Positions 13,197 through 28,635 of a stretch of DNA of 64,000 bases are shown here, piece by piece. Under the pieces are notes generated by a model. That model was not told where the DNA came from. It saw only the letters and a list, made by a program, of their open reading frames with translations, and made no database searches. Made by a program: the position numbers and the translations under genes. This DNA is from Bdellovibrionota bacterium (lineage in GTDB: Bacteria; Bdellovibrionota; UBA2428): NCBI GenBank assembly GCA_964202055.1, contig CAXNGS010000001.1, positions 224,186 through 288,185 on the forward strand, given 5' to 3'. How positions within the stretch are numbered: position 1 is the stretch's first letter; every line of letters begins with the position of its first letter.

Positions 13197-13332
13197 TTAG
13201 AGTGGGACTCTCATTCTTGGGGGGTCCTTTTCGCTCTACATCTCACAGTTTGACTCCACGCGTTAATTTAACTAAGACTGCGCTGTGATTTCACGCTCGT
13301 GCCCAACTTCGATTTCAATTTTTCATCGATTG

Positions 13333-14754
13333 ATGGCGCTGGCGCTTTCGTTGTCCTTTTTCCTGTCGCCGATTCTTCAGTCGACTTCGCTGGCTGTAGA
13401 TAAAATTGATTTAAACGGCGGCGCTCCAATTGATCCGAATCGTGCTGGCGAATCACCAGACGCATCCCCGTCACTACCAAATGCGGCTGATCCTAAGTCT
13501 TGCGATCAGGCGCTCCGAGATAAAGCAGCCTTGGAATTAGCCGCGCTCAAGTCCGATGAATCGGTGGGGGCAGCGTGCGCTCAGGCCGGCGTTTGCGAAG
13601 TTGGCGAATCCAAAATCACGCGACGTTTTCAGCTCTTTAAATTTTTGCGATCGATGGTCGTGCAAAGTGGTGTGGAAATTTGGGAGTCGGTGAAGGCCGT
13701 TCGAGGGCGTGAGTTGCGCAAGAACCCAAATGCGATGCTCGATTTTGTGAAAAATATGGCGATCATTTGGCCGGGGCAAATTTTCGGTTGGATGCGCGAG
13801 CAAGCCAAAACCGGCGCTGTATCAAATATTTTCAATGCGCCTTATACAATATTTTTTCATACCTTTTTCATGGTGTGGACTCAGAGTGATCGCGGTGCCG
13901 GCAACACTCCAGATGTTGATAGTGCAGAATCGAAAGCTCCCAAAAAATTATGGAACTGGGTAGACCGCGCGCTTACGAAAACTCCCCGCCCGGTGGGCGA
14001 TTGGAGTCGCAATCTTTTGGAATCGACTTTACCAGCACTGAGCATGATTCAAGAAGCTTACCGAGGGAAAAACGGATTTTGGAAAGAAAACGGCCAACGC
14101 TTTGTTGGGTTTTTATCGATCATTCCTCTCGAAGTTTTGTCGCTGACTTTGATGGAATCATTGAAGGCCACGCCGGGTTTGATTCAGAGTGGGCATCTTC
14201 CAGAAGGCTTTGGTGGAATTTTAGCCAATCGGGCTTTGTTTGCGGTGATGTTTGGCGTTTACTTGTCACTTAAGTGGGCGCTTTTTTCCAAGGTTTTTGA
14301 CTTGCGAGTTTTGCCAGCTTTTCGCGGTTGGTTATCGTCCGGATGGCAACCTCAATGGCAAAGTTTAAAAGAAAAATATGGAATGCGCTTTCGCGAAGGC
14401 GAAGTTTTCGATGAATTGAAACTAGGACGATTGCTCACGGTAGATTTGTACAAGGCTTTGCGAGGCCAACGTTATGCCAGCCAAGTCGAAGGCTGTCGTT
14501 TGGTAGCCCAAAAAAGCATGGGCGAAGACGGCGATGGCAAGGGGTGGCGCGAATATTGCCAGCGCTGGAGTGCTTATTCGAGTTTCGCCAAGAGCGGCGA
14601 GTTTTGGACTTTACTGCGCGAGAAACCCGGCACTTGGTTGAAGCACATTGCGGGATTCCCGATTGAAATGACTTATCGTTATGGCAATAGCTTTTTAGAT
14701 GGCGCTCTGGTTTTTTGGCTGATCAATTCGGCAGTTCCGGCAATGCTAAATTAG
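13333..14754 (+). CDS. hypothetical multi-pass membrane protein
   Basis: Start moved to ATG 13333 (MALALSLSFFLSPILQSTSLA signal-like), in frame with the track ORF at 13285. Several hydrophobic helices (YTIFFHTFFMVW, FVGFLSIIPLEVLSLTLM, LFAVMFGVYLSLKWALF). No family recognised. Confidence 0.55.
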   Translation: MALALSLSFFLSPILQSTSLAVDKIDLNGGAPIDPNRAGESPDASPSLPNAADPKSCDQALRDKAALELAALKSDESVGAACAQAGVCEVGESKITRRFQLFKFLRSMVVQSGVEIWESVKAVRGRELRKNPNAMLDFVKNMAIIWPGQIFGWMREQAKTGAVSNIFNAPYTIFFHTFFMVWTQSDRGAGNTPDVDSAESKAPKKLWNWVDRALTKTPRPVGDWSRNLLESTLPALSMIQEAYRGKNGFWKENGQRFVGFLSIIPLEVLSLTLMESLKATPGLIQSGHLPEGFGGILANRALFAVMFGVYLSLKWALFSKVFDLRVLPAFRGWLSSGWQPQWQSLKEKYGMRFREGEVFDELKLGRLLTVDLYKALRGQRYASQVEGCRLVAQKSMGEDGDGKGWREYCQRWSAYSSFAKSGEFWTLLREKPGTWLKHIAGFPIEMTYRYGNSFLDGALVFWLINSAVPAMLN

Positions 14755-14810
14755 TTTTTATAAATTAATTTAGTTTTTATAAAATTTAGATAATTTAATA
14801 AGAGGCTTAA

Positions 14811-15773
14811 TTAAAAATTACGATTCACTTGTAGGCTCCAAAAATAACCGGGCCAAGTTTTGATCAAACCGATTTTTTGGACAAATCCCCAGTTCTCGCC
14901 GCGCCAATGGGTGGTGAACAAATAAAGGGGATAAAAAGAAATTTTATTATTGGATTTGATATCTTTAGTGGGGTCGTCGGGCCATTGCCCTTTACGAATG
15001 GCGATGGGGATTTCGAATCCAGCGGCCAAAGTTTCCGAGTGGCTGAATAATATCGAGGGCCCAGTTATGGCGCCGAAAACTTGAATGTTTTTCCCGATGT
15101 AACACTTGTCGGGGCCGGTGCCGGCATTGGCACAAAGCGAAGAGTCTTCTTTTTTATCGCCCAGATTAGCAATCCCCACAAACGCACAGGTGTCCCAAGT
15201 GAATTGACGACGGGCGCTTTTACTTAGGTAGAATCCAATGCCGGGACAAAGGCCCATCGCGGTAGAGAGCACTGGAATTTTGTGGCGATCGTTGGCGTCG
15301 CTTTGATTGATGGTGATCGTAATTTGTTCCTGCCAAGACATGAATCCCAACGTGAAATAGGAGCCTTTGATTTCAGCTAAGCCGGTTTCTCCGGGTCGCA
15401 AACGATGGGCAAAGGGGCGTTCCACATTCGATGCGATGGGAGCCGCGTCTTTGGGTTTTTCATAGGCTTCTTTAAGCCGAATGCATTTTGAACTAACCGC
15501 AAACATTTGGCCGCTGTTGTCGCCTTCGACCATGAACACTGTGATTTCGTCTTTTTGGGGCAAGCGCTTGCCGGCGATTTTGTATTTGCTGAAATAACCA
15601 AGTTTGCGTTTGGTTTTTACAAACTTGCTGTCGTTTTTAGAATACTGATTAACGTCACATTTCGGATTGCTGATTCCGACCACGTAGCCATCGGCGCGCG
15701 CCGAGCTTGCGATTAGTGCGGAGGTGACTAGGGTCGTCACAAATAAAAATTGTTTAGTGTTAAAAGTAAACAT
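14811..15773 (-). CDS. secreted hypothetical protein, probable outer-membrane beta-barrel
   Basis: Signal peptide FVTTLVTSALIASSARA. C-terminal WSLQVNRNF ends in Phe (OMP beta-signal). 14-nt overlap with the upstream barrel gene. Confidence 0.55.
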   Translation of the reverse strand: MFTFNTKQFLFVTTLVTSALIASSARADGYVVGISNPKCDVNQYSKNDSKFVKTKRKLGYFSKYKIAGKRLPQKDEITVFMVEGDNSGQMFAVSSKCIRLKEAYEKPKDAAPIASNVERPFAHRLRPGETGLAEIKGSYFTLGFMSWQEQITITINQSDANDRHKIPVLSTAMGLCPGIGFYLSKSARRQFTWDTCAFVGIANLGDKKEDSSLCANAGTGPDKCYIGKNIQVFGAITGPSILFSHSETLAAGFEIPIAIRKGQWPDDPTKDIKSNNKISFYPLYLFTTHWRGENWGFVQKIGLIKTWPGYFWSLQVNRNF

Positions 15774-16902
15774 GGGCCTGCCCTAATAGTCGGATGGTGT
15801 CGCCTTTGGTTCCGAGTTCTGAAAGGTTGTAGGATCGATAGCCCTGGATATCGAAGCGAAGTTCGAGTCTTTGGAAGGGTGAATAGATCAAGGTAGGACC
15901 CGCTTGAAATTGCTCGTTGCGGGCGCCACCTTGGGTGGAGCTTAGATACTCAAAGGTTAAAAGATAATGCAATCCACGGGCGACCGTGGTGTATGACTGG
16001 ATAAGAGCATACAAAGCACTGTTGTTACCACTATCGCCGATGTCCGTTCGAACGTATCCAACTTCGGTTAAGAGGCTGGCTCCGCCTTCATAGCCACTGC
16101 GGGAATGAATCGCCGCCATCATCCGCTTTCGGAGCGGGCTTTGGCTGTAAAGCGTAGAAAATCCCATTCGCCATTTGTTTTTGGGTTCCCATTCGTACAT
16201 GAGCGATGCGCCTTTTTGGCGAATTTCAGAATCGGCCATCATGTTTCCTAGGAAGGTATGAAGATTGATCTCCGATTTTGTGCTCGCGTAATTGACCAGC
16301 AATCCATGGGTTTGATCGTTTTGAGCTAAGCCAGTAGCCACCCGGCTAAAGGCGGTGTGGTCGGGAATTCGAGTGCCAAAAGCGGTGTCCATATATCCGG
16401 TGTAGAAGCCCCATTTTTTCGAGGGACGATAGGCCAAATAATGTTCGCGAGTGATGAGAATTTTTCCGGTACCCCCTGCATCGATGTATCCCATGGTGCC
16501 CGATGCAAATAAATTGGGTTTAAAGTTAATGACCATGTTGAAATCGGCGCTCATCGGAAAAAATCGAGCTTTAGGATCATTGCCAATGTCGTCGATCATG
16601 TGAAGCATTCGCAAGTCAAATGAGGGGCGAAATTTCGAGTCCACTCGTGGCCGCCCCCAAAATCCCGAACGACCGCCGATGGCTTCATCAGTTGCTTTTA
16701 AATTCCAAAAAGGCTTTGCCGAAAATTCAGTGGCACCCAAGGCTCGGCCGTAATCGGTGAGCGGGCCATTGCCCAAGGGATTGTAATGACAGACCGAGCA
16801 AGCAGTGTAGCCGTAGGCCACAAAGTGAGGATAGGCCAAAGACTCTTGCGAGGTGATGAGCGCGATCAGCCCGGCAATAATAAAGACCAGCGATCGTTTC
16901 AT
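15760..16902 (-). CDS. outer-membrane beta-barrel protein with N-terminal CxxCH motif
   Basis: Signal peptide LVFIIAGLIALITSQESLA. YTACSVCHYNPLGNGPLTDYGR follows directly after the cleavage site. Alternating beta-strand pattern and C-terminal LLGQAHVYF. Confidence 0.6.
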   Translation of the reverse strand: MKRSLVFIIAGLIALITSQESLAYPHFVAYGYTACSVCHYNPLGNGPLTDYGRALGATEFSAKPFWNLKATDEAIGGRSGFWGRPRVDSKFRPSFDLRMLHMIDDIGNDPKARFFPMSADFNMVINFKPNLFASGTMGYIDAGGTGKILITREHYLAYRPSKKWGFYTGYMDTAFGTRIPDHTAFSRVATGLAQNDQTHGLLVNYASTKSEINLHTFLGNMMADSEIRQKGASLMYEWEPKNKWRMGFSTLYSQSPLRKRMMAAIHSRSGYEGGASLLTEVGYVRTDIGDSGNNSALYALIQSYTTVARGLHYLLTFEYLSSTQGGARNEQFQAGPTLIYSPFQRLELRFDIQGYRSYNLSELGTKGDTIRLLGQAHVYF

Positions 16903-17019
16903 CTTGTTAAGAAGTTATCAAAGAAATCCAAGCTCCGCTATCCGCCGCAAAAATTATGCAAAAAATATGAAAAAAAACAGTGGCCAAGGCTACCCAGAAG
17001 ATTTTTGAGAGTTAGAATC

Positions 17020-17457
17020 ATGAGCATGGTTCAACGGGTGCAAGTTAAGATGAAGGGACGAGCGGGAAAAATCGCAAAAAAAATAATAGGCCCTTGTCTC
17101 GCGATTTTAATTTTTGCCGGAGCCGGAATTTTGCAGTCTTGTTTTTTAAACACCAGCAACACTTTCACAGCCGACAAGCCTTGCGGTGACAGCGCCGACG
17201 AAGATTTTTGCGGATTTCAAACTTTGCTAAAACCCGGCGGATGTTTCACTTCGGGCTGTCATAGCGAGTGGTTGGATTATGATTCTTTCGAAGACTACGT
17301 CGCTGATGGATTGATCACCAAAGGGGCTCCTGGATCATCATCGATTTATACTAAATTGGCCGGTGCGGGTTCCGGCGGCAATATGCCATTGGGTTCTTAT
17401 CCAGATTTGGAAAGCAGCTCGCTTAGTGATTTGAGTGATTACATCACGGGTCTTTAA
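17020..17457 (+). CDS. small lipoprotein with CxxCH heme motif (PSCyt1-like)
   Basis: Start moved to ATG 17020, because the track ORF from 16786 overlaps the neighbouring gene. Lipobox-like ILQSC. GGCFTSGCHSEW followed by KGAPGSSSIYTKLAGAGSGGNMPLG, resembling the Planctomycete cytochrome-c domain. Confidence 0.55.
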   Translation: MSMVQRVQVKMKGRAGKIAKKIIGPCLAILIFAGAGILQSCFLNTSNTFTADKPCGDSADEDFCGFQTLLKPGGCFTSGCHSEWLDYDSFEDYVADGLITKGAPGSSSIYTKLAGAGSGGNMPLGSYPDLESSSLSDLSDYITGL

Positions 17458-17495
17458 GCAAAGATTACATCACGGGTTTGTGATTTAAAATTCGA

Positions 17496-17999
17496 TCAGT
17501 CTGAATCGTCTAGCCCTTCAACGAAATTCCAAAGCGCATTGAACTCAGCAAGTGTAAGTCCGGTATTTTTCGGCATTGATTCGATCGACACCAAAAGTGC
17601 AGGCGCGCCTGCAGGTTTTTTAACGGTCTGCATCATTGGCGATTGGTATCCGTCGAAATCAAGGCCAATGAATGAATGGGGCACCCCGAGACACGGATCA
17701 TTCCAATATTTTGGATTGTAGAGTTGGCTTGCCATCAAATTTCCACGGGATTCGTGGCAACTAAGACACTTGCTTTGAATGACTGCTGCCGCGGCTTCAA
17801 GTCGCGCTTTCTTTGCAGTCATCAAACCGGGTTGGGGCATTGAATAGTCAGTGGTGTCGGCATTGCCACAAGCATCCACGAATTCTTCTTCTTCGTCTGC
17901 GCCTCCACCAGCTAAGTCAGGGTTCACGGCCAATTTGCACGCAGACAAGGTCCACACGCTTAGTAGTGCCATCAGTTTTAAATTTCCGTTGATCCGCAT
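17496..17999 (-). CDS. small lipoprotein with CxxCH heme motif
   Basis: Lipobox TLSAC. SKCLSCHESRGNLM. 167 aa. Confidence 0.6.
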   Translation of the reverse strand: MRINGNLKLMALLSVWTLSACKLAVNPDLAGGGADEEEEFVDACGNADTTDYSMPQPGLMTAKKARLEAAAAVIQSKCLSCHESRGNLMASQLYNPKYWNDPCLGVPHSFIGLDFDGYQSPMMQTVKKPAGAPALLVSIESMPKNTGLTLAEFNALWNFVEGLDDSD

Positions 18000-18038
18000 A
18001 CGTGTCCCCCTAGGTCGTGCTTACATTCAAAACTTTGC

Positions 18039-21000
18039 TTAACGCTCAGTTCGTTGGACGGTGATGTTTCGACCGCCAAAGTCCAAAGAGAAAGTGAAGG
18101 TGTGATCGTTGCCGTCACGACCGGTGTTCGGCCATCGATATATCAATTCACGATTCGCGTTTCCGAAAGCATCGGGAGTTCCGACCACTTGGGCGACTGG
18201 AATGATGTAGTTGGTGGCGTCGTTGATTCGGCGTTCAGCCAGTGAAGTCACACTGATTCCGCCAGTGAAAGCACTGGTGATGACGATCTTAATTTCCAAT
18301 GCGCCGCTAACTTCCGCACGAGTGTTCGTCACGGTAGTGCTGAAGTTGACGGATTTGGTACAGCTATACGGATCGGTCAAAATTGGATCTTGAGAATTAG
18401 ATCCGACAATGCGATTCATTGCGCTGACAGTGATCGTGCGGTTTTGAGTGCTCATCGGAGTGTATTTTGCGGTCCCTGGCGAAGAGGCTTTGAGAGCCAT
18501 GCTTGCGACGGCGCCGGCTCCAGTGATGGCCTGCCCATTTTCGCTGACCGTCATCACGGTCTCAACATTTTGGCCGTTCACTTGGGCGGCGAATTTATTT
18601 TGGGCATAGGCGGTTAAGTCAACCGCCACTCCAACAGTCAGGCTGTTGTTCGGGAATGCGTTGTTGCTGTCGGTGCCTTGCGGACTCAGAAGCACGTCAC
18701 AATTCCCGATCGTTTGTTGAATGTTGTCTCTAGGAGTGGGCAGGGCCGTCTCGTTGATCTCGAGAGTTTCCGACGGATTACCTGACTCGTCTTCGGCTTG
18801 AGCGACGAATTTGACGTTATCGGTTTTTAAATTTATTGGATTAAAATCTGCGGTGTTGAAATCGAAGGAACCATCGAATCGTCGCGGATTTGGGCCCATA
18901 GATCCATTGCTCATCGGCGCGCCATTGGGGTCACCGAATACATCAAGGCTCGAATTCGAAATGGTTGCTCCAAATTTTTGGACGTCTAAGTTGATTTTTT
19001 CCACTCGCGAGACGTCGTCAAAGGCATCGAAGTCGATCGAGAAACTTGCAGAGCCATTTCCGACGTTGTCGTCAATGCCGCCCATCATGGCCAAACGAGG
19101 CTTAACAGTGTCGGTTATTTCCTCGCGGAAAAGAGGCGCGTTCATATCCGTTCGCTGACCATCAATAAACCTTTTGAATTTATCGAAAAGTTGGTCCGCA
19201 ATCGGTGAGCCAGTGCTCAAGGCTTCAACATAAGGTTGCATTTCAGCCGGAACACGCTCTTGGTATCTCCAGACTCGATAAATGGCAGAGCCTTCAGATC
19301 CGCCACCAATAGCCAGGCCTCCGCCTTTAGCCACGGGCAATCGCACCGGAGGACGCATCATTCGCTCGTGAGATCGGCGAACATGGGCTTCGGGACGAGG
19401 AGTTGCTTCGTTGGGAAGTTGCACTCCTTCAAAGAGCCAATCGAAAGTTTTCACGGGGTCCAAGCGGAACTGCGCATTTTTCACGACGAATTGGGTGCGA
19501 TCGGCATCGGCCGCAAAACTCGAGTGACAGTTAATGCAATACGTAGAGATCATGGTTTTTACGGTTTCTTCATCAGTAAGGGTTGCCGGAATGTCATCAG
19601 CCCCGGCGGGATTTAGTTTGGTGTAATCCAATGTTTCAAAGGCAATCGCGATTTCATCCTTGAGCGCGCCTCCCTGTTTTTGCACAAGCATGGGCTTCAA
19701 CGAAAGCTGGCGATAAGTCACTGGGTTAGAGATTGTTTTTGGATCGGCATCATTGGCGTATTGAGTGTCGAGCGCCAATGTCGGCATGACTTTATTAACG
19801 GTCACCCAGTCCGAGTCATTGGGGTTAAAAGAACTGTTGATCATGAAGCGCACGCCGCGAACGAGCAAGTTGTTTCCACGTTCGGGGCTGTTGGGTTTTG
19901 GAACAATGGTGCCTTTTTCAACTTTGTAGCCTTCTTCGTCGAAAACCGTGATGTCGAGAACCAGATTCAAATTATCAGGAACAATGGGAGTGGATTGATT
20001 CAACGAATTGTAATCAGCAGCTGCTTTATCCAAGATCGGATCCAAGTCGAAAGTTAGTGTCACTTTTCGGCCGATCAATTCGTTAATTAAAACGCCTCCG
20101 TTGTTTGCTAAGGCATCTGAGCTCGAGCCTTTGTAAACAAAGGAATCCGGAATGAAAAGAATTTGGTCGAATTTCACGCCTTCATTGACGATGCCGACTT
20201 TGAAAGTGTTGGAGGCTCCAACACTGGTTGCAAATTGCCCAATGCGCTGCCAGTTCCAAGCTCCGTTGCCTACTATGTTAATTGCGCCGCCTAAGGCTTG
20301 CTTGTTCAATTGGACATCGAAACTACGGGTGCTGTTGATCGGCGCGGCCGCACGCATATAAATTTCGTAATTAGCTTCGGTGCTGGAGAATTGGTATTGG
20401 GCATAATTACCCATTCGGATATCCAGGGCGTCGCGTGGGCGTCCAGAGTCAGGAATGTAAAGATAAAGTCCTTTGCCGGCGACTTTATCTTCGGAAACTT
20501 TAAAGCGTTGGCCAATCGATGCCGCCTTACAAGTTCGAAGATTGTTTTGAGCGTCTCTGCAAGGAGCATCAGGCTTCAAAACGATGCTTCCCGAGTAAGC
20601 CGCTTCGGCTTCTACTAATTTAGCGCCACGGGGAAGGGGCAATTTGCTACCGGGCAAAAACGGTTGAACTGCAGTCACCACACCCATGTCCACTGAGTAA
20701 CCTTGAACGTATTCTCGCCAAGCGTAAATGGCTTCCAACATTCCTTCGCCGTTCTTTTTGCAGTTTTCATCAAGGCTGCCTTCGCCCCAACAATTGTGCT
20801 TGTCATCGACCAAGCGTTTGTAAAGCCGCGAAAGTTCCGGCCGTTGAAAGTTAACTTTACCCGAAGAAAGAAGTGCGTCGCGCGCTATTAAAGGATCTTT
20901 GTTTACGAAGAAGGGCGACTGGCCGGAAGCATGACAGCCCAAGCAAGTGCCGGTTTTAGCAAAGCGATAAACAGTTTTTTGGAATCCGACCAAGGATTGA

Positions 21001-21113
21001 TCTTCGGAATCAATGATGATTGCCGAGTTTTGAGTTTGGAGCTGAGCTTCGCCCATAATACAGCCCGACAAAATCATCGGAAGTATCAGATACACCAAGT
21101 TACGTGCTCTCAT
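18039..21113 (-). CDS. large (1024 aa) lipoprotein with two CxxCH motifs and C-terminal beta-rich repeats
   Basis: Lipobox MILSGC. TGTCLGCHASGQSPFF near the N-terminus and TYCINCHSSFAAD mid-protein. Long uninterrupted ORF. Confidence 0.75.
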   Translation of the reverse strand: MRARNLVYLILPMILSGCIMGEAQLQTQNSAIIIDSEDQSLVGFQKTVYRFAKTGTCLGCHASGQSPFFVNKDPLIARDALLSSGKVNFQRPELSRLYKRLVDDKHNCWGEGSLDENCKKNGEGMLEAIYAWREYVQGYSVDMGVVTAVQPFLPGSKLPLPRGAKLVEAEAAYSGSIVLKPDAPCRDAQNNLRTCKAASIGQRFKVSEDKVAGKGLYLYIPDSGRPRDALDIRMGNYAQYQFSSTEANYEIYMRAAAPINSTRSFDVQLNKQALGGAINIVGNGAWNWQRIGQFATSVGASNTFKVGIVNEGVKFDQILFIPDSFVYKGSSSDALANNGGVLINELIGRKVTLTFDLDPILDKAAADYNSLNQSTPIVPDNLNLVLDITVFDEEGYKVEKGTIVPKPNSPERGNNLLVRGVRFMINSSFNPNDSDWVTVNKVMPTLALDTQYANDADPKTISNPVTYRQLSLKPMLVQKQGGALKDEIAIAFETLDYTKLNPAGADDIPATLTDEETVKTMISTYCINCHSSFAADADRTQFVVKNAQFRLDPVKTFDWLFEGVQLPNEATPRPEAHVRRSHERMMRPPVRLPVAKGGGLAIGGGSEGSAIYRVWRYQERVPAEMQPYVEALSTGSPIADQLFDKFKRFIDGQRTDMNAPLFREEITDTVKPRLAMMGGIDDNVGNGSASFSIDFDAFDDVSRVEKINLDVQKFGATISNSSLDVFGDPNGAPMSNGSMGPNPRRFDGSFDFNTADFNPINLKTDNVKFVAQAEDESGNPSETLEINETALPTPRDNIQQTIGNCDVLLSPQGTDSNNAFPNNSLTVGVAVDLTAYAQNKFAAQVNGQNVETVMTVSENGQAITGAGAVASMALKASSPGTAKYTPMSTQNRTITVSAMNRIVGSNSQDPILTDPYSCTKSVNFSTTVTNTRAEVSGALEIKIVITSAFTGGISVTSLAERRINDATNYIIPVAQVVGTPDAFGNANRELIYRWPNTGRDGNDHTFTFSLDFGGRNITVQRTER

Positions 21114-21160
21114 GTTCTCTCCTATAACGGTCCAAAATTAACGGCTTCGGATAAAACTAA

Positions 21161-22804
21161 TTATCCGAAGTTTTGCATGGTCAATACATCGGACATTCCG
21201 CCACCAAAGGGGTTGTCGCCGACCACTTGAACGAGTGAGCCTTCTTTGCCGCCAATCGACAGATAGTTAGCCACAATCGCTTTGGTCAGGTTTTCGACGT
21301 TGTCGCTGATTAAAGTCGCGCCACGGTCGACGCTTGCCGATTCGTTGTACGCGCCCACTTGGTGTTTGGTTGCCATTTTCAATCCGGCGTGGCGATACCA
21401 CAGAAGTGCCGACATTGATTTGGTTCCGTTATCACCAGTGAACTGATGCTTTTGGACGTTGGCCGCGGTGAAAACACCCGGAGCGGTTTCAATTTGAATT
21501 GCGGAGGTTTGAACAGTAGCGCCCGATGACAATCCGCCATCAGTGTACAAGTAGATCACTAAGTCTTGGCCGAGCGCCGCAGCGGCGTTGATCAAAGCTC
21601 CGACCACGTGACCGGCATTGCGGTCTTGTTCGTCGGTCTCGCCTCGATCATCGTTGTGATAATCATAGCCACCAAAGGAAACGGTGCCGGCATTTGCAAA
21701 TCCACCGAGCACAAGTTTTGCGATACCAGCGGCTTGGCCCAATCGTTGAGTGGCACCTGCAGTGCGAGCTCGACCACTTCCACCCTGGGCAACTTGAGCG
21801 GTGTTGGTATTGTTAAGACCAAAGATCGGCGCAAGTTTGGGGTCTTGTGCTGCGTCGACCGCGGCACCGCCACCTAAATATTTTTTCACAGATTCTTGGC
21901 TCTTCAAATATCCACAATCAACCAGCGATCGAACTTGCGAGGGCAAATCTAGCTGGGTAAATTTATCAAGTTGCGAAGAGCTCATTCGATTCACAGTTGA
22001 CATCACGCGATCTGCGCGAGCTTTCAGTTGCGAAGTGCTGGCCATTCCGCCATCAAGCCACGAAGGTAGAAGTCCCACGTCTACTAAATTTACCGCGTCG
22101 GCCGCGCTTCGGATTTGAACGGGTCTTAGCATGGGGTCAACCGAACGAACCGGCGCCATCGCGTTACCACCAGCAATGTTTTGAGTGGAGCCAACAAGGC
22201 TTGTTAATTCGCCGCGAATGCCGGCTTGCAATTGAGCCTTAGCAACCCAGTAACTCGGATTGTGCGGATTGTTTTGAGTGTCGTCACCCGAGCGCGCGCA
22301 GAAAATCGCGCCGTCCACTTTAGTGCGCGCGACCGGATTTAATTCACGAGCCAAGCCTTCGTAGAAAGCGCTTTGCGAGTGAAACATTAAACCACCGGGG
22401 TTTAAGCTTCGAGTCAGGTTTCCTAATTTCGGATTGCTCGCAGCAGTTAATCCAATGCTGCCGTAGTCTGCTAAGTAAGCTTCTTGGCTGCCCAATCCAC
22501 CGGGGCCTTTACCGCCCACGATGAAGTTACTGGCTGCTAAGTTACCGCCACCGGCTAAGTCCACGGTGATGAAAGCGGGTAACAATCGTTTGCCGGCTCC
22601 AGCGCCACTGCCTGAACAGCCAGCGTAAGCTGCGTTGCTTAAGAGTCCCAAGATGCTTGGGCCAAAGGCCAAGCTTGCGCTAGCGCCTGCGGTTCGCGCT
22701 AGGAAATCGCGTCGAGTTAATGCCGGGCGCGAAGAGTGACATTGAGCGGTTTGAAATTCATCAGTTTGTGATCGAAATTTTTTTGTCATATATTTTGTCC
22801 TCAA
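21161..22804 (-). CDS. Tat-exported DUF1501-like (sulfatase-fold-like) protein
   Basis: Twin-arginine signal LTRRDFLARTAGASASLAF. ITVDLAGGGNLAASN and FGGYDYHNDDRG resemble the DUF1501 GG..D.H pattern. Start could instead be the Met 5 codons downstream. Confidence 0.65.
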   Translation of the reverse strand: MRTKYMTKKFRSQTDEFQTAQCHSSRPALTRRDFLARTAGASASLAFGPSILGLLSNAAYAGCSGSGAGAGKRLLPAFITVDLAGGGNLAASNFIVGGKGPGGLGSQEAYLADYGSIGLTAASNPKLGNLTRSLNPGGLMFHSQSAFYEGLARELNPVARTKVDGAIFCARSGDDTQNNPHNPSYWVAKAQLQAGIRGELTSLVGSTQNIAGGNAMAPVRSVDPMLRPVQIRSAADAVNLVDVGLLPSWLDGGMASTSQLKARADRVMSTVNRMSSSQLDKFTQLDLPSQVRSLVDCGYLKSQESVKKYLGGGAAVDAAQDPKLAPIFGLNNTNTAQVAQGGSGRARTAGATQRLGQAAGIAKLVLGGFANAGTVSFGGYDYHNDDRGETDEQDRNAGHVVGALINAAAALGQDLVIYLYTDGGLSSGATVQTSAIQIETAPGVFTAANVQKHQFTGDNGTKSMSALLWYRHAGLKMATKHQVGAYNESASVDRGATLISDNVENLTKAIVANYLSIGGKEGSLVQVVGDNPFGGGMSDVLTMQNFG

Positions 22805-22818
22805 CTCCTAGAGCCTTA

Positions 22819-23439
22819 CTAGAACATAGTGACGCAAGAGCTCGACAAGAAGACCGAGCAGGTTAGTTTTAGATATTCGTCGGCGACATCGGTCGCTTGG
22901 ACGCTTTGAAGGTCGCTGAGCAGTCTGCGGATTTCAGATTTCACACCGTCAATTTCCGGTTTGACTGCGCAAGTTCCCCAGAATTTTTCGTAGTAACCTT
23001 CGACCACGTTATCGATGCTCGCGTTTAAAGCGGCAACCGATGCCGGGCCATTGCCCAGAGCTCGCTCAGCATTGATGTGCTGATTGCAATAAATCGCTGC
23101 CATCCGAATGATCGCGCCTTGGTGAGAAGCGTTGAATTCCGCCAAGTTGTTGTTGGAGGGCAACTCTGATTTCAATCCACCGCCTTCGGGTCGAATGAAA
23201 TCGTTACCAACTGTGGTCACCATATCAACGGTGATCGATCGTGCTGGTAATTTAGAAATGTTGACGCCCGTCAGAGCTGACATGGTCTCGTTGATTTGGT
23301 CAAAACTTCGAACGCTGACGTTGGCTTTTGGTAATTCCACTTCATCACCGGCCGCCAATTGATCCACAAACTGTGGAGAGCAGCTAACGGTTGTGAACAA
23401 GAGCAAAGCGCTGATAGAACTAATTTTGTTTATTTTCAT
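22819..23439 (-). CDS. hypothetical lipoprotein
   Basis: Signal peptide plus FTTVSC lipobox-like site. Sits between the CxxCH protein and the Tat protein with 3-14 nt gaps. Confidence 0.55.
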   Translation of the reverse strand: MKINKISSISALLLFTTVSCSPQFVDQLAAGDEVELPKANVSVRSFDQINETMSALTGVNISKLPARSITVDMVTTVGNDFIRPEGGGLKSELPSNNNLAEFNASHQGAIIRMAAIYCNQHINAERALGNGPASVAALNASIDNVVEGYYEKFWGTCAVKPEIDGVKSEIRRLLSDLQSVQATDVADEYLKLTCSVFLSSSCVTMF

Positions 23440-23442
23440 AAA

Positions 23443-24849
23443 TCACTCTCCCATCTCGTTTTCGATACAGGCTACAGCTGAGTCGACAAAGAGAGCCTTT
23501 CCAGAACGGCCTTGGTTATCAAAGCTTTCTGCTAAGTTAGCGAACAACCCAATTTCTTTTTGAGAGTAGGGAGCTTTGCGATTGCAGACTGAAGAGTAAG
23601 CGCGCTGAGCCATGCAGCGTGAGAATTGAGTGGTCGCGCCGAAAACTCGACCCAAAGATTTAATGCCGTTACCCATGTTAATGTTGGGAACGTCGGAATC
23701 TGGTTCGCCAACTTGTTTGGCAGGAGTGCGAAATCCAAGGAAAGAGTTCTGACCAACAGTCCACTGGTTGACCCATCGTTCGATGTTGCCATCTTGTTGG
23801 CGGGGACGAAATCCTTCGGGGTAGTTTTGATAGTTACGTGTGACTTTGTTGGCTTGTTCAACCATCGTTTCAGCTTTGTTTTGTGGCAATCCCGGAATGT
23901 TTTGAACCTTGGCGCTATCATATTTCACCATGATTCCTAGCGGCTCTTGCATACCACCGACCACTGTGAAGGTGTCGTATAAGTTAAAGGCGTTGGCCAA
24001 GGGATCCATTCCCGCGTGGCAACCTGCGCAAGTGTTAATATAGGTACGGCTATCACCGCCGGCATTTCGTGGAACGTCTCGTCGAACCATGAAGTCCGAC
24101 AAAGTGGTGTCGTGAAGTTGTTCCATATCGACACACATGAAATCGATCAACATGAAGCGAACCATTCGGCGGTTGGTTCCCGCTTGCAAGAAGGCTTCTG
24201 CGCTGGCGTGCGAGGTCATAACGCCCATCGTTTGCTCGGGCAAAAGTGCGGCGCCTCGAGCGTCGCTTAAAGAAGATTGAAGGGCTCGTTCGAAAAGTGA
24301 AGGGTCATTTAAATCGACGCCTTTCAATTCCAATTGGCGCCAGTGATCGTTTCTGTAATAAGCCGGTTGCGGAACGCTGATCGGGTTACCGACAACGGCC
24401 AGCAAGTTTGCTCGATTTCCAACGTAAGTAACGTCGTCCCACATCATCTGATCAAGCGGAGCTTCGTCGCGTACTAATCCAACGATGGTAGCTGTGAAGT
24501 CATTGAATTCCACGCTGGCTTGAGCGCTGACGTTGCTCATCGGAGCGGCCCACGCTTTAACGGTGGTGTTGATGAAACCGCGAGTATTGGTTGCTAATTC
24601 TGCAATCCCTTTTAAATTGTTTGCCGCGGCAAGGTCTTCTATTTGCGAAAGTTCACCGCTGGTCGGCGGTACTCCTGATAACCTTTGAAACAGTCTGATT
24701 CCTGTCTCCAAAGTCGCGGCGGATGCCATAGAAGAATAACCGAGGCTGAAGAGAACCATAGAGAGTCCTAGGGCTTTAAGTCCTGAGCTCTTTTGAATTT
24801 CCGACTTCGCGTTTTTCAAGGCAATCCTCCAAAAGGAAATAGTGGTCAT
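23443..24849 (-). CDS. secreted CxxCH protein resembling the DUF1588/DUF1585 (PSCyt3/PSD2) family
   Basis: Signal-like LGLSMVLFSLGYSSMASA. GVMTSHASAEAFLQAGTNRRMVRFMLIDFMC followed by INTCAGCHAGMDPLANAFNLYD. Confidence 0.65.
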   Translation of the reverse strand: MTTISFWRIALKNAKSEIQKSSGLKALGLSMVLFSLGYSSMASAATLETGIRLFQRLSGVPPTSGELSQIEDLAAANNLKGIAELATNTRGFINTTVKAWAAPMSNVSAQASVEFNDFTATIVGLVRDEAPLDQMMWDDVTYVGNRANLLAVVGNPISVPQPAYYRNDHWRQLELKGVDLNDPSLFERALQSSLSDARGAALLPEQTMGVMTSHASAEAFLQAGTNRRMVRFMLIDFMCVDMEQLHDTTLSDFMVRRDVPRNAGGDSRTYINTCAGCHAGMDPLANAFNLYDTFTVVGGMQEPLGIMVKYDSAKVQNIPGLPQNKAETMVEQANKVTRNYQNYPEGFRPRQQDGNIERWVNQWTVGQNSFLGFRTPAKQVGEPDSDVPNINMGNGIKSLGRVFGATTQFSRCMAQRAYSSVCNRKAPYSQKEIGLFANLAESFDNQGRSGKALFVDSAVACIENEMGE

Positions 24850-25131
24850 ACCTATTGTCTGTTCCAGTAACGTACATACAGAACGCCTTCAGTTTATCGG
24901 TCGACCCCAGCAAATCATAATTAAGATTGGGTTATCATTTTGGAATTGTTGTTAAATAATCGCCAAGATTCTTTATCCGTTGGAATTTCAACCGCTAAAT
25001 ACCCTATGAACTTTGGCTTTTGATAGGCCTTCACCCAAACTTAACAATTGATTCACACAATCATAACAAAACAGAATTTATTTAATTCTAACTTCATGAG
25101 ATTGGCCGGACTTTTCCTCATAAAATAAGGC

Positions 25132-25881
25132 ATGGGAAAGAATTGGGTCTTCTTGTTGGTTGCAGCCTGCCTTTACTTTCAAACAGTAGGTGCCCAGAGT
25201 TCCAGTTTGCTCTCTAATGTAGAGCTCCCCGGCATCGTCTTTAAAAATCCCCCTGAATGGTTAAAAAAATCCGATCTCATTAGTATCATCGACGGAATAA
25301 AAACCCGCACTGGATGGAACCCAGAGAATGTGGTGGTGCAATTTTATAATGATCCCGGTTTGTATGGCTTAGCCTTACAAGATGCCCGATTAGGCGGAAC
25401 TCCTGCCTGGGGTTTTGCCGATTCCTCGAAAAACATGATTCATATTGGCCCGCAAACTAGGGCTCGCGATTTTAAGCTACTTTTTTCCCACGAGTTAGGA
25501 CATTTAATCAGCTGGAGTTTGTTTCATGGCAGCATGGCAGATTATTTGGAAGAAGGTTTTGCAGAATGGGTGGCCCAGAACCCAAATTTAAGTTTCTCGT
25601 GGATCAATCAACAAAATAAAACGATTGATCCAAGACTGATCATGGATGCCATGAGACAGGGGGGGGCTAGTTTTGACATTCAATATCGCTATGGATTGTC
25701 CTACGCCACCGTTTTATTTCTCGCTAATAAATGTCCGGATTTGATCGGAGTGTTGCGCGATAGTGGAGGCCAAAATCTTGATAAATTGCTGGCCGATCGC
25801 TGTCAGACCCCGTTTTTTTTAAATTCTTTTCAGCTATGGCTCAATGAAATGGCTTTTGGCAGCGGCCGGCCTCGATATTAA
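25132..25881 (+). CDS. secreted zinc metallopeptidase-like protein (gluzincin, Peptidase_MA-like)
   Basis: Signal peptide WVFLLVAACLYFQTVGA. HExxH in FSHELGHLISW. Downstream EEGFAEWV supplies the third ligand pattern. Confidence 0.6.
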   Translation: MGKNWVFLLVAACLYFQTVGAQSSSLLSNVELPGIVFKNPPEWLKKSDLISIIDGIKTRTGWNPENVVVQFYNDPGLYGLALQDARLGGTPAWGFADSSKNMIHIGPQTRARDFKLLFSHELGHLISWSLFHGSMADYLEEGFAEWVAQNPNLSFSWINQQNKTIDPRLIMDAMRQGGASFDIQYRYGLSYATVLFLANKCPDLIGVLRDSGGQNLDKLLADRCQTPFFLNSFQLWLNEMAFGSGRPRY

Positions 25882-25920
25882 TCGGTGACTTAGCGATTGG
25901 GGTTTGCTTAAACCAGCCCG

Positions 25921-28635
25921 GTGTTGGGAGTTGGAGAAAAAGAGCGGGTGCCGCCTCGGGATTCCGAAGCCTGGAAAACCCCTTTATTTGAACAGTATTG
26001 GACCGCTAAAGACGGCGTTCCCGGAGCCTTGCTGTTTTTTCGACTCGGTGATTTTTACGAACTCTTTGGCGAAGACGCGGTCCAGGCCGCGCCGATCATG
26101 GAAGTTCAGTTAACTTCCCGAAGCAAAGGCTCTAAGGACAGCATCCCGATGTGCGGGGTTCCCGCCCATGCTGTCGACGCTTACACCGAAAAACTTTTAG
26201 CCCGCGGATTGAAGATCGCGCTTTGCGAACAAGTCTCGGAGCCGGGAAAAACTAAGTTAGTCGATCGCAAAGTCATCCGAGTTTTAACTCCGGGTTTGCC
26301 GACTGATTTTCAGCGACTCGACGCCAAAGAACCCCATTGGTTTTATTCGATCGGCTTTCACGATCAAAAATTGCAAATTTCGCTTTTCGATTTTCTGGCG
26401 GCCAAACTTTTTGAAGGCGAAGTTTCCACTGACGAAGAACTTTTGGATTTATTCTCACGAGCCAAGCCCCAAGAAATTCTGCTTTCCGAAACTGTTTCTA
26501 CTCAGCGCAGTTTTGAAAAAATTTGGCCGTCACTTAATGAAGGATCACGTTTTCGAACGATCATCACTCCTTGGATTGGCGCCACTTCAAGGGGGAATCT
26601 CGAAGATTACCTTAAATACACTCAAAAATTTTCTGAGCAAGACTTAAGCCAATTCATTCCCGAAGCTCGCGGATTGCATGAAGTGATTTCGTCGGGCGGC
26701 GCCCATTATGCGCGATTGCCAACTTCAGTGTTGGAGCAGTGGAATGTTTTCCCCGAACTTTTTGAACTGCTCGATGGCTGTGGCAGTGCGGTGGGATCTC
26801 GCCGGTTGCGTGAATTATTAGCGCGGCCCTTGCTTAGCGTTCAACGTATTCAAATCCGTCAGGAAATCCTGAAAAACTTTTCGGAATTTGAAAGTTTTCT
26901 AGCCGAATCTAAAAGCGTTTATGATTTTGAAAGAATCCTGGGGCGATTTCGAATTGGAGTGGCCCAGCCCCTTGAACTTTTTCGTTTCTTGGCCGCACTC
27001 CAACATTCGATCAACGGGTTAGGGCTGATCGAAGGTCAAGAACGATGGCAGAATTTCTTCCGCTCGGAAGTTTTGATTGAATTAAAACCCGTTTTGAATT
27101 CGCTGGGAAAACTTGCGCAGGAGTTAAGCCGAGCCCTCGACACCAGTGTTGAAGTTGTCAAAACAACTGATTTAAATTTATTAGTGCGTCGGGGTTTTAA
27201 TAGCGAATTAGATCACCTGAAAGACACTCATGAAAACGCCGGCCAATGGTTGGTGGATTTTGAAAATAAACTCAAGAGTGAAACTGCTATCTCCACTCTC
27301 AAAGTTCGCTTTAATAAAATTTTTGGCTATTACATTGAAGTTAGTAATTCGCACTTGAATAAAGTGCCCAGCACTTTTCAACGTAAACAAACCACTGTTA
27401 ACGGCGAGCGATTCACCTGCCAAGAATTGACCCAAAAAGAAAAAGAAATTCTGACTGCCGAAAGCCAAGTCGAAGCCAAAGCTCGCGAGATTCTAGAAAA
27501 TTTGCAAGCTCAAGTTTTGGCTGCGACAAAAGAGCTACAAGTTCTCATCGATCATTTTGCCTGGGCTGATGCATGGGCGGGCCTTCGAAAAAATTTGCGC
27601 AAGCTTTCTGTATTGGTGCCCTGGAATTATCCGCTGATCGAAGAAGGTTCGCGATTTCAATTCTCGGCCGAAGATTTGCGTCATCCGATTTTGGCAGCAC
27701 GGGATCGAGAATTCGTGGCCAATTCAATCGCTATCAGCTCTCACGAAAAACCCGTCATGGTGCTCACCGGGCCCAACATGGCCGGTAAATCCACTTTCAT
27801 GCGCCAATGTGGCTTGGCGGTTTTGATGGCTCAGTGTGGGCTGCCGGTTCCGGCAACGTCGATGAAACTAGTTCCATCAAGCGGCTTTTATTCGCGAATG
27901 GGCGCGTCGGATCGAATTCTTTCCGGCGAAAGCACCTTCATGGTTGAGATGAAAGAATGCTCGCAAATTTTGCGTGACGCTGATCAAAATAGTTTCTTAT
28001 TGCTCGACGAAATTGGTCGTGGCACTTCCACTCAAGACGGTTTGGCAATTGCCCGCGCGATTTTAAAATACATTCACGACGAATTGGGCGCTCCCACCAT
28101 TTTTGCAACTCACTATCATGAACTTAGCCGCGATGCTGACGCGTTGTCTTTGGCCCGCAATGCTTCCTTGGGAATTCGAGAATACCGCGGACGACTTCTT
28201 TTTTTACGCAAGCTCGAGTTTCAAGCCGCCGAAAGCAGTTACGGAATCTACGTCGCTAAATTAGCCGGATTACCACTCGCGATTTTAAAAAGCGCCGAGA
28301 AATTTTTCCGACAGAATTTAGAATTGGAAAATTCGAATTCGATACCTCAGTTGAATCTGTTTCAAACATCGGCCACTCAAACTCAGCTTTTAGAAGTCGA
28401 AGAGCCAAAATTAGATCCAAAAGTCGAATCGATTTTGAGTGAGTTAGAGTCCACTGATGTTCTCGAGCTTAGTCCTAAAGAAGCCTGGCTTCGTTTGGAG
28501 TCATTGGTGACAAGGGCCCTTGATATGGAAGCAAGACTTTCACAAAAAACAAAGAAAAGCGGCCATTTCGGCAGCCAAGGCGGCCATCAAAGTGGCGGAA
28601 CTTCCCCTGAATCGCCTGATTTCTTAGAATCTTGA
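25921..28635 (+). CDS. mutS: DNA mismatch repair protein MutS
   Basis: FFRLGDFYELFGEDA at the N-terminus. Walker A GPNMAGKSTFMRQ, LLLDEIGRGTST, FATHYHEL. GTG start at 25921 is the first in-frame start. Confidence 0.93.
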   Translation: MLGVGEKERVPPRDSEAWKTPLFEQYWTAKDGVPGALLFFRLGDFYELFGEDAVQAAPIMEVQLTSRSKGSKDSIPMCGVPAHAVDAYTEKLLARGLKIALCEQVSEPGKTKLVDRKVIRVLTPGLPTDFQRLDAKEPHWFYSIGFHDQKLQISLFDFLAAKLFEGEVSTDEELLDLFSRAKPQEILLSETVSTQRSFEKIWPSLNEGSRFRTIITPWIGATSRGNLEDYLKYTQKFSEQDLSQFIPEARGLHEVISSGGAHYARLPTSVLEQWNVFPELFELLDGCGSAVGSRRLRELLARPLLSVQRIQIRQEILKNFSEFESFLAESKSVYDFERILGRFRIGVAQPLELFRFLAALQHSINGLGLIEGQERWQNFFRSEVLIELKPVLNSLGKLAQELSRALDTSVEVVKTTDLNLLVRRGFNSELDHLKDTHENAGQWLVDFENKLKSETAISTLKVRFNKIFGYYIEVSNSHLNKVPSTFQRKQTTVNGERFTCQELTQKEKEILTAESQVEAKAREILENLQAQVLAATKELQVLIDHFAWADAWAGLRKNLRKLSVLVPWNYPLIEEGSRFQFSAEDLRHPILAARDREFVANSIAISSHEKPVMVLTGPNMAGKSTFMRQCGLAVLMAQCGLPVPATSMKLVPSSGFYSRMGASDRILSGESTFMVEMKECSQILRDADQNSFLLLDEIGRGTSTQDGLAIARAILKYIHDELGAPTIFATHYHELSRDADALSLARNASLGIREYRGRLLFLRKLEFQAAESSYGIYVAKLAGLPLAILKSAEKFFRQNLELENSNSIPQLNLFQTSATQTQLLEVEEPKLDPKVESILSELESTDVLELSPKEAWLRLESLVTRALDMEARLSQKTKKSGHFGSQGGHQSGGTSPESPDFLES

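Follow-up and report, generated by a model that had tools for sequence, protein, structure and literature searches.

Cytochrome-motif proteins of the PSCyt/PSD type, which in Planctomycetota and Verrucomicrobiota are paired with a DUF1501 or DUF1552 partner, are of unknown function and count among the most expanded function-unknown families of these phyla (PMC5615132); the corresponding Pfam models are PF07627, PF07624, PF07635, PF07394 and PF07586. A second described group is Cyc2, an Fe(II) oxidase found in Acidithiobacillus and Zetaproteobacteria in which a cytochrome is fused to a porin; OprP and OprO serve as its templates, and it is defined by an AXPXFAR[Q/K][T/Y] motif upstream of CXXCH and a PXL motif four residues downstream of it (PMC8406198). 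Here we describe a locus that resembles both: eight consecutive genes for exported proteins, seven of them on the minus strand, at positions 14811-24849 of a 64,000-nucleotide stretch of DNA from a Bdellovibrionota bacterium (contig CAXNGS010000001.1 of assembly GCA_964202055.1). The whole of this stretch is called the window below.

We read the cluster as a composite of two conserved, separable envelope modules that may together form an envelope electron relay feeding a metalloenzyme, a tentative reading to which we give somewhat less than an even chance. Module 1 would consist of A468, of PSCyt3/PSD2 type, a lipid-anchored protein with cytochrome, LamG and "B" domains (split here into D1024 and B206) and the C547 protein, exported by the twin-arginine translocation (Tat) pathway; module 2 would consist of the haem-bearing 16-strand porin G380, the small outer-membrane protein H320 and the lipoprotein monohaem cytochromes F145 and E167. 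The eight open reading frames (ORFs), named by a letter and their length in amino acids (aa), are the following.

A468: positions 23443-24849, minus strand; exported monohaem protein, apparently of PSCyt3/PSD2 (DUF1588/DUF1585) type
B206: positions 22819-23439, minus strand; lipoprotein, equivalent to the C-terminal domain of a gammaproteobacterial LamG/cytochrome protein of about 810 aa
C547: positions 21161-22804, minus strand; Tat-exported metalloprotein candidate with a predicted alkaline-phosphatase-type fold
D1024: positions 18039-21113, minus strand; lipoprotein with a cytochrome c domain, a LamG-like domain and a second haem domain
E167: positions 17496-17999, minus strand; lipoprotein, putative monohaem cytochrome c (CLSCH at 17754-17768; distal SMP)
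F145: positions 17020-17457, plus strand; small lipoprotein, putative PSCyt1-like cytochrome c, divergent from G380-H320
G380: positions 15760-16902, minus strand; outer-membrane monohaem cytochrome fused to a 16-strand porin
H320: positions 14811-15773, minus strand; exported protein whose C-terminal 185 aa or so resemble a small outer-membrane barrel ending in F

Gene content and haem motifs of the cluster

A first-pass annotation of the window had proposed these eight genes; its coordinates for the seven on the minus strand were reproduced by the ORF list, which also contains the plus-strand gene, and an independent gene call on the same contig (ENA ERZ27280294, 595 kb) has the same eight genes. 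Every peptide string that it quoted was found in the proteins. The differences between gene calls are limited to starts, A468 being 438 aa and C547 542 aa (ATG at 22789) in the independent call; for C547, the ATG at 22789 is the likelier start. F145 is nested in a longer ORF. The gaps between genes measure 3 nucleotides (nt) from A468 to B206, 14 nt from B206 to C547, 47 nt from C547 to D1024 and 39 nt from D1024 to E167, and G380 and H320 overlap by 14 nt.

Export signals were judged by direct reading of the sequences, except for the Tat signal of C547, for which the TIGR01409 model was used. We found lipoboxes in B206 (TVSC), D1024 (LSGC), E167 (LSAC) and F145 (LQSC) and Sec signal peptides of the AxA type in A468, G380 and H320, while the TRRDFL motif of C547 passed the Tat model with 17.3 bits (cutoff 16.7). 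All eight products are thus exported proteins by inspection, as had been proposed. The Tat signal was also the only match above threshold when the eight proteins were searched against Pfam and NCBIfam.

The 3,257 aa encoded by the cluster contain five CxxCH motifs where 0.005 would be expected from composition, an enrichment of about 1,000-fold, and the remaining 16,485 aa of window ORFs contain none. The canonical motif is present in four proteins, namely A468, D1024 (two motifs), E167 and G380; F145, which had been counted as a fifth, has CFTSGCH, i.e., Cx4CH, with a two-residue insertion relative to its orthologues, which would be a rare motif for haem attachment or else a site in decay. 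Conservation of the motifs, on which the first-pass annotation had made its proposal depend, was found in the orthologues of A, D, G and F: the motif is kept in 68 of the 72 A-family ORFs listed (two of these truncated), the first D motif in all D-family ORFs recovered, and the G motif in 12 of 13 homologues, the 13th having it in a longer ORF (a start-codon artefact). At the position of the F145 motif, all 11 F orthologues have CxxCH. The motifs presumably carry covalent haem.

Regulatory elements were sought as well. The best match to a Fur box reached 13/19, which equals the background elsewhere in the window; sigma-70 promoter and terminator scans stayed at the level of shuffled sequence, and an Rfam scan of positions 14000-26000 gave zero matches. 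The 47-nt gap between the C547 stop and the D1024 start holds a hairpin (21145-21170, minus strand) with a 10-bp stem and a T-rich tail, which may be an internal attenuator, the overall terminator count being at chance level.

Two separable modules

Module 1 occurs in at least 584 species genomes: a pattern scan for the C family over one genome per GTDB species gave 599 stretches, 584 of which encode a relative, and the best 80 were fetched (loci from this set and further contigs are cited by L number below). Its hosts are Bacteriovoracaceae, Halobacteriovorax and Oligoflexia, "Deltaproteobacteria", Spirochaetales and Myxococcota, and many Gammaproteobacteria (Thiodiazotropha, Woeseiaceae, Rheinheimera, Arsukibacterium, Marinobacter, Alteromonas, Paraglaciecola, Shewanella algicola and Methylococcales); the Planctomycete-type character once ascribed to the cluster does not apply to this core module, which is widespread in Gammaproteobacteria and not Planctomycete-specific. 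When the window proteins were compared with the loci by tblastn, A, B, C and the N-terminal part of D came out together in almost every locus. Among the 63 loci with enough flank, A accompanies C in 63 and A plus B or D in 62, despite gene fission, fusion and reordering, so that the synteny in relatives that the first-pass annotation had called for is indeed found. The gene order is A-B-C-D in Bdellovibrionota and A, the gene of about 810 aa, then C in gammaproteobacteria.

A468 carries CAGCH at 24016-24030, followed by the family signature GMDPLA. Its match to PSCyt3 (PF07627; 17.6 bits, E 0.0049) falls short of the gathering threshold of 27 bits and covers only the CxxCH..DP stretch (residues 270-294). 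PSD2 (PF07624, DUF1585) does not match A468 and does match 28 of 49 orthologues at E<=0.01 (best 1.4e-6); a few orthologues match PSCyt3 or PSCyt2, two database homologues have a precomputed PF07624 match, and one orthologue is named "DUF1585 domain-containing" in UniRef. In the alignment of 49 sequences, C274, C277, H278, G280 and D282 are invariant or nearly so, within the stretch C..CH.GMDPLA. Because the orthologues match PSD2 and this stretch is invariant, we take A, on sequence grounds, to be a short, divergent haem protein of the PSCyt3/PSD2 type, in line with the DUF1588/DUF1585 likeness noted at first sight. When relatives in the Planctomycetes-Verrucomicrobia-Chlamydiae (PVC) group were sought with the A-family profile, it returned 44 family members only, none with full PSD architecture.

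D1024 and B206 appear to be two parts of one protein. The gammaproteobacterial protein of about 810 aa combines two CxxCH domains with a Laminin_G_3 domain (72.9 bits) and a C-terminal domain; in hhalign, residues 34-206 of B206 align to residues 640-808 of the L081 protein (probability 100, E 6e-42), residues 38-498 of D1024 to its residues 162-623 (probability 99.9), and residues 515-652 of D1024 to a cytochrome domain (probability 71). Since D and B align to one gammaproteobacterial protein, the window holds a split version of a three-component system. Residues 38-498 or so of D1024 thereby comprise a class-I cytochrome c domain (CLGCH, 20931-20945) and a LamG-like domain; a second haem motif, CINCH, lies at 19524-19538, and the last 370 aa or so are lineage-specific. 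Laminin_G_3 (PF13385) is not matched by D1024 itself, whose residues 38-498 align to the gammaproteobacterial region containing it, and it matches 37 of 48 proteins when the fused gammaproteobacterial proteins are pooled with the D and B proteins of Bdellovibrionota. The "B" domain reads as helical.

C547 carries the motifs TRRDFLA (22697-22717), DLAGGGN (22541-22561), SGDDTQNNPHNP (22256-22291) and GGYDYH (21656-21673). In the family alignment, the invariant residues are RR, D82 (DLAGG), D175 and N179 (S..DDT.NNPHNP), D381-Y-H383 (GGYDYH), D394, D422-G423, D458, Q482 and N513. The AlphaFold2 (AF2) model (predicted local distance difference test, pLDDT, 78.4; predicted template-modelling score, pTM, 0.79) has a long helical insertion at residues 240-330 or so and places the invariant residues at the ends of core strands, where D82, D175, N179, D381, H383, D422 and D458 look like a metal site. 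In a Foldseek search with this model, the 50 best PDB matches all belong to the alkaline-phosphatase superfamily, among them steroid sulfatase, E. coli alkaline phosphatase, EptC, MCR-1 and cofactor-independent phosphoglycerate mutase (iPGM); these matches are weak, with E values of 0.01-0.3 and template-modelling (TM) scores of about 0.2.

C547 had been described as Tat-exported and DUF1501-like. The Tat signal stands; the second label fails every sequence test, as none of 65 C-family members matches DUF1501 (PF07394) or DUF1552/HXXSHH (PF07586) even at E<=1, and hhalign against two true DUF1501 proteins aligned 11 columns with a probability of 17. What remains of the likeness is the Tat signal, the weakly matched fold, the same motif order and a paralogous DUF1501 module found in the same position (see below). 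Searched against 1.84 billion representatives, the C-family profile reached only 1,480 proteins at E<=0.001 (1,153 at E<=1e-10), so that we regard C as a discrete family and not as the fringe of DUF1501. Neither Pfam nor NCBIfam has a model for the C family or for the G family, and tblastn of C against 72,556 plasmids gave zero matches.

Two other assignments were considered for C and set aside. RefSeq and UniRef name members of the family "general secretion pathway protein GspF", for instance in Rheinheimera, Marinobacter and Alteromonas (L081 10010-11587, L047 9923-11482, L059 9917-11536), and we found no match to T2SSF-type Pfam or NCBIfam models; because the C proteins are Tat-exported, soluble alpha/beta and alkaline-phosphatase-like, the name appears to be a propagated misannotation. 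Flavinylation by ApbE was considered because of an SGAT sequence at residues 427-430 or so of C547; this is probably a chance occurrence, as the family does not conserve it and ApbE is absent from the window.

In module 2, G380 is the best-resolved protein. Its CSVCH motif (16786-16800, residues 35-39) directly follows the signal peptide (...SLA/YP, the slash marking the end of the peptide), and the protein ends in YF. The AF2 model, built with 70 sequences (pLDDT 89.7, pTM 0.83), shows a small helical domain with the haem motif and then 16 strands; Foldseek gave 253 PDB matches at E<=1e-3, the 50 listed being mainly 16-strand general and specific porins, and the highest query-normalised TM scores among them are those of OprP (2o4v, 0.63) and OprO (4rjw, 0.62). 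For the G family we count 232 homologue clusters; none carries a Pfam domain, and where organisms are named, the names are of Bdellovibrionota type. Its N-terminus is nearly invariant (A/YPxF..GY..C..CHYNP.G.GPL.DYGR); Met117 is invariant, and an inner loop rich in His, Asp and Arg (residues 172-200, between strands 5 and 6) is conserved; these are candidates for the sixth haem ligand and an ion site.

Of the two beta-barrels with C-terminal Phe proposed earlier, G380 is thus borne out by model and structural matches, and H320 is likely a small outer-membrane barrel judging by its sequence. In the H family, the C-terminal 185 aa or so end in Y.F, with the terminal F in 15 of 16 sequences, and residues 145-317 of H320 match a barrel-only homologue of 189 aa (E 1e-5). 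The relatives have a TPR region where H320 has its own N-terminal region, and this TPR region accounts for the only matches in the PDB sequence and profile searches made for A, C, D, H and the gammaproteobacterial D/B fusion.

F145 has its Cx4CH motif at 17242-17262 and a distal-Met motif, GGNMP. Its family consists of lipoprotein cytochromes of about 120 aa with invariant M122-P123; the orthologues match Cytochrome_CBB3, F145 itself matching no Pfam model. A BLASTP match (4e-10) to a dihaem lipoprotein that reaches the PSCyt1 threshold supports the PSCyt1 likeness first proposed for F145. E167 scores 17.5 bits against Pfam Cytochrom_C (cutoff 21.3) and aligns as a distant paralogue of the F family; with no tblastn match in the 80 loci, it is a lineage-specific paralogue, and it perhaps belongs to module 2.

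How the modules are associated can be followed in the loci. Of the 10 Bdellovibrionota loci that extend at least 6 kb to either side, 8 have G-H no more than 10 kb from module 1; G-H is placed upstream and divergent in seven loci and downstream on the same strand in five, and linkage in two different arrangements argues for selection on linkage. Including the window, we sampled nine G contexts, the other eight being contigs found via G homologues. The cassette adjoins module 1 in L084/L085, L084 being the fullest version, with an extracytoplasmic function (ECF) sigma factor, a small gene (probably its anti-sigma factor), A-B-C-D, an LspA-like Peptidase_A8 and G-H, and on the opposite strand a cytochrome c and YceI. 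In three of the nine contexts (L083 6748-12802, L086 5048-12925, L089 3128-13707), it is found in copper/mercury islands, beside a multicopper oxidase of 720-800 aa, CsoR, MerR, CopA-type ATPases, DUF411, MerC and Haem_bd. The Peptidase_A8 between D and G (L084 9130-9957, plus strand; L003-L016) is an unusually long signal peptidase II-like protein of 275 aa, a feature that suits a lipoprotein-rich cluster.

A second type of module (A', D'B', C') also adjoins G-H, in L087 (11709-16274, minus strand) and L090 (2791-9694, minus strand). Its C' is a genuine DUF1501 protein (35.9 bits against a threshold of 27), and hhalign supports homology between A' and A (probability 89.7, E 1.8e-6). The cytochrome lipoprotein of this module scores high enough for PSCyt1, and the B'-like domain stands alone in L087 but is part of a fusion in L090; hhalign of B against the type-2 B domain gave no signal. 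The strongest reason to think that C works in the manner of a DUF1501 partner is that a DUF1501 module takes the position of module 1, and the occurrence of G-H beside a DUF1501 module as well as in copper islands points to metal redox chemistry, with a Tat-exported redox enzyme as the usual partner. The cluster had been seen as one machine; this was too simple, the modules being separable and repeatedly linked.

In gammaproteobacteria, other neighbours recur around module 1.

HzsA-like lipoprotein of about 900 aa, divergent from A: 38 gammaproteobacterial loci (e.g., L079 3023-5752, minus strand)
SH3_3 plus outer-membrane protein (OMP) barrel: 35 loci
OMP barrel of 222 aa: 31 loci
TlpA-like redoxin: 29 loci, including three of Bacteriovoracaceae/Oligoflexia
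ApbE: 19 loci
DUF3570: 12 loci
CARME-like methyltransferase: 12 loci
ExbB/ExbD/ExbD/TonB with large TPR proteins: 10-14 loci

The HzsA-like protein has a beta-propeller, a middle HZS_alpha domain (54 bits) and two CxxCH motifs, and an SH3+OMP barrel, a small OMP barrel and a TlpA-like redoxin are encoded beside it; no function is known for HzsA homologues of bacteria other than the anammox group (PMC12758564). A known flavin/thiol system of extracytosolic electron transfer is made up of DUF3570, ApbE and a thioredoxin-like protein (PMC8238504). In profile-profile comparisons of D with the HzsA-like protein, and of H and G with the gammaproteobacterial SH3+OMP and OMP barrels, the probabilities were at most 5, and we claim no homology. 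HzsA-like, SH3-OMP, OMP, CARME-like methyltransferase, LspA-like and ECF sigma factor genes are all absent from the 64-kb window.

In the window, the cluster is flanked by housekeeping genes (MutS, MreB, FtsY, ribosomal protein S1, an AddAB-like helicase-nuclease and a sigma-54 two-component pair). The names in the 90% cluster to which this MreB belongs mark the DNA as that of a metagenome-assembled Bdellovibrionota genome. Three ORFs on the plus strand, 13285-14754, 25132-25881 and 32167-35178 (489, 249 and 1,003 aa), have no Pfam match; the first two are the immediate neighbours of the cluster, and none of the 80 related loci contains a homologue of either. Another plus-strand gene (11220-13196), with a local GC content of 0.555 against about 0.47 elsewhere and again without a Pfam match, encodes an exported protein of 658 aa with long Gly runs interrupted by W and C (GGGGW, CGGGG).

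A possible electron relay and its rivals

The reading that we prefer, and with which the data are compatible, is a trans-envelope redox one. In it, the G380 porin would admit a small solute capable of redox reactions, with Cu(I), Fe(II) or another metal ion as the likeliest candidate, and this solute would exchange an electron with the haem of the porin. F145 and E167, the lipoprotein cytochromes, would shuttle electrons through the periplasm, either towards the haems of D1024 and A468 or away from them; D1024 and A468 would sit with C547, the catalytic or terminal partner. The data show family relationships, motif conservation, synteny, the modularity of the cluster, a confident porin fold for G380 and a weak fold match for C547; how the proteins touch, which way electrons run, what the substrate is and what C547 catalyses are inferred, a metal ion being the most economical guess for the substrate. 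An envelope haem relay fits the redox neighbours of module 1 in other phyla as well as the multicopper-oxidase islands in which the porin cassette recurs.

One has to set several observations against such a relay. Module 1 is without a G homologue in 39 of the 39 non-Bdellovibrionota loci with enough flank, so that in gammaproteobacteria it would work without the cytochrome-porin, and the G-H-cytochrome-YceI cassette occurs alone, without module 1, in L082 and L088. The 64-kb window contains no redoxin, ApbE, DUF3570, YceI or copper genes and no inner-membrane electron entry point. The LamG domain, together with the ExbB/ExbD/TonB genes neighbouring the module in some gammaproteobacteria, fits binding and uptake equally well. 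As for C547, its structural matches are weak, as given above, and it has no recognisable redox cofactor site; enzymes of the alkaline-phosphatase fold are hydrolases or transferases, not redox enzymes, and we know of no precedent for a haem relay feeding one of them.

Among the rivals, the one that survives best, although we consider it unlikely, is non-redox capture and hydrolysis: the LamG domain would bind a glycan or another polymer and C547 would trim it in the manner of a sulfatase or phosphatase, the CxxCH domains being structural or sensory and G380 and H320 being porins that admit the substrate or release the products. For the PSCyt/PSD and DUF1501/DUF1552 pairs in Planctomycetes and Verrucomicrobia, such a role is sometimes put forward. 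It would account for Laminin_G_3 in the D/B protein family, for the alkaline-phosphatase/sulfatase-type fold predicted for C and for the ExbB/ExbD/TonB clusters a few kb away in two gammaproteobacterial lineages, and the finding that PSCyt genes of Verrucomicrobia sometimes come with carbohydrate-binding modules (PMC5615132) favours it too. It leaves aside, however, six haem motifs strictly conserved across phyla, the dedicated small cytochromes c and the haem-bearing porin linked to the module, and the redoxin, ApbE and DUF3570 neighbours; moreover, the recurrent clusters of the 80 neighbourhoods include no glycoside hydrolases, SusC/D, TonB-dependent receptor or sugar transporters.

The separability of the modules raises a second alternative, rather unlikely in our view, in which two independent systems lie side by side, module 1 (perhaps with E167) doing one job and G-H-F serving outer-membrane metal homeostasis. 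The G cassette found alone and in copper islands, and module 1 found without G outside Bdellovibrionota, are what it would lead one to expect, and in the window F145 and G380-H320 do form a separate, divergent transcription unit. Yet G-H stands beside module 1 in most of the Bdellovibrionota loci, in two orientations, and beside the paralogous DUF1501-type module on two further contigs; a linkage that survives rearrangement and module replacement is unexpected for unrelated neighbours.

A bolder form of the redox reading would make the locus an unrecognised trans-envelope conduit, linking a cytochrome-porin, Cyc2-like in build but not in signature, through lipoprotein cytochromes to a haem-scaffolded, Tat-exported enzyme of the alkaline-phosphatase fold; the porin would exchange electrons, in one direction or the other, with a metal ion or another small extracellular solute. 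We think that this is probably not the case; if it were, C547 would be the first redox-coupled member of the alkaline-phosphatase superfamily, and the system would offer a first way into the function of PSCyt/PSD and DUF1501-type gene pairs.

Still less probable is that the whole locus serves the detoxification of copper, or copper and iron, with G380 oxidising or gating Cu(I) at the outer membrane, the cytochromes removing the electrons, and C547 and A468 handling the metal in the periplasm. The copper/mercury islands that house a third of the sampled G contexts speak for it, and Tat export is typical of metal-loaded periplasmic enzymes. Against it, there are no copper genes in the window or in most module-1 loci, the alignments of A, B, C and D have no obvious copper-binding motifs rich in Cys, Met or His, and no metal-responsive regulator adjoins the cluster in the window. 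Finally, that G380 is a true Cyc2 and the locus a pathway of energy-conserving Fe(II) oxidation is highly improbable: G380 does have the signal peptide, the one N-terminal CxxCH, the 16-strand OprP/OprO-like porin and a length of at least 365 aa, but the AXPXFAR[Q/K][T/Y] and PXL motifs are absent from it, no cytochrome oxidase, rusticyanin or bc1 genes are linked, and Bdellovibrionota are heterotrophic predators.

Comparison with described systems

The building blocks of the cluster are of known kinds, a PSCyt/PSD protein with a DUF1501-type partner and a fused cytochrome-porin, and neither has the defining features of the described families. No function had been claimed for any of these families at the outset, and this agrees with what we found: database homologues of A, C and G are "hypothetical" in the sources or misnamed, with no precomputed Pfam domain except in the two A homologues mentioned above, and literature searches by family name and accession found no functional study. 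A compact distant relative of the PSCyt/PSD pairs in so many species may make an old function-unknown question testable. Its hosts include cultured marine gammaproteobacteria (Marinobacter adhaerens, M. manganoxydans, Alteromonas, Rheinheimera and Shewanella algicola), and some of these may lend themselves to genetics. The G family would be a second lineage with Cyc2 architecture, in predatory bacteria, and its placement in copper-resistance islands suggests outer-membrane metal redox chemistry beyond iron oxidation. The analysis also exposes the "GspF" name propagated in RefSeq for the C family.

With the alkaline-phosphatase superfamily (sulfatases, alkaline phosphatase, EptC/MCR-1 and cofactor-independent phosphoglycerate mutase), C547 would share the predicted core fold and conserved acidic and His residues at the strand-end metal positions; it differs in that it has neither the sulfatase CxPxR motif nor an identified nucleophile, and in being encoded with haem proteins. 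From the system of DsbD, a thioredoxin-like protein, DUF4266, DUF3570 and ApbE (PMC8238504), DUF3570, ApbE and a thioredoxin-fold protein are found near some module-1 loci (gammaproteobacterial, "deltaproteobacterial" and spirochaete), as accessory neighbours and not as core components.

Like Cyc2, G380 has a signal peptide followed by a single CxxCH and a 16-strand OprP/OprO-like porin, within 380 aa, and small periplasmic monohaem cytochromes are encoded alongside it. Unlike Cyc2, it has only AxPxF (AYPHFVAYGYTAC), with AYPHFVAYGY in place of FAR[Q/K][T/Y], and downstream of the motif HYNPLGNGPL, with no PXL at the Cyc2 spacing; since these defining motifs are absent, we do not file G as Cyc2. 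The family has its own invariant motif (YPxF..GY..C..CHYNP.G.GPL.DYGR) and predatory Bdellovibrionota hosts, and its linkage is with YceI, a TPR/barrel protein, copper islands or module 1 rather than with respiratory oxidases.

The PSCyt/PSD pairs are matched by A468, which is exported and has a CxxCH motif, the C..CH..DP signature and, judging by its orthologues, a PSD2-like C-terminus, by PSCyt1-like small cytochrome domains in F145 and D1024, by a putative inserted LamG-type domain, by the adjacent Tat-exported protein of about 500 aa and by the DUF1501 module at the same place in L087 and L090. In contrast to these pairs, C547 fails the DUF1501 and DUF1552 models and belongs to its own family of about 1,480 clusters; A is short (about 400 aa) and has no PSD3, PSD4 or PSD5; the module comprises three or four genes, not a pair, and is linked to a cytochrome-porin; and its hosts are Bdellovibrionota, Gammaproteobacteria and others, beyond the PVC bacteria.

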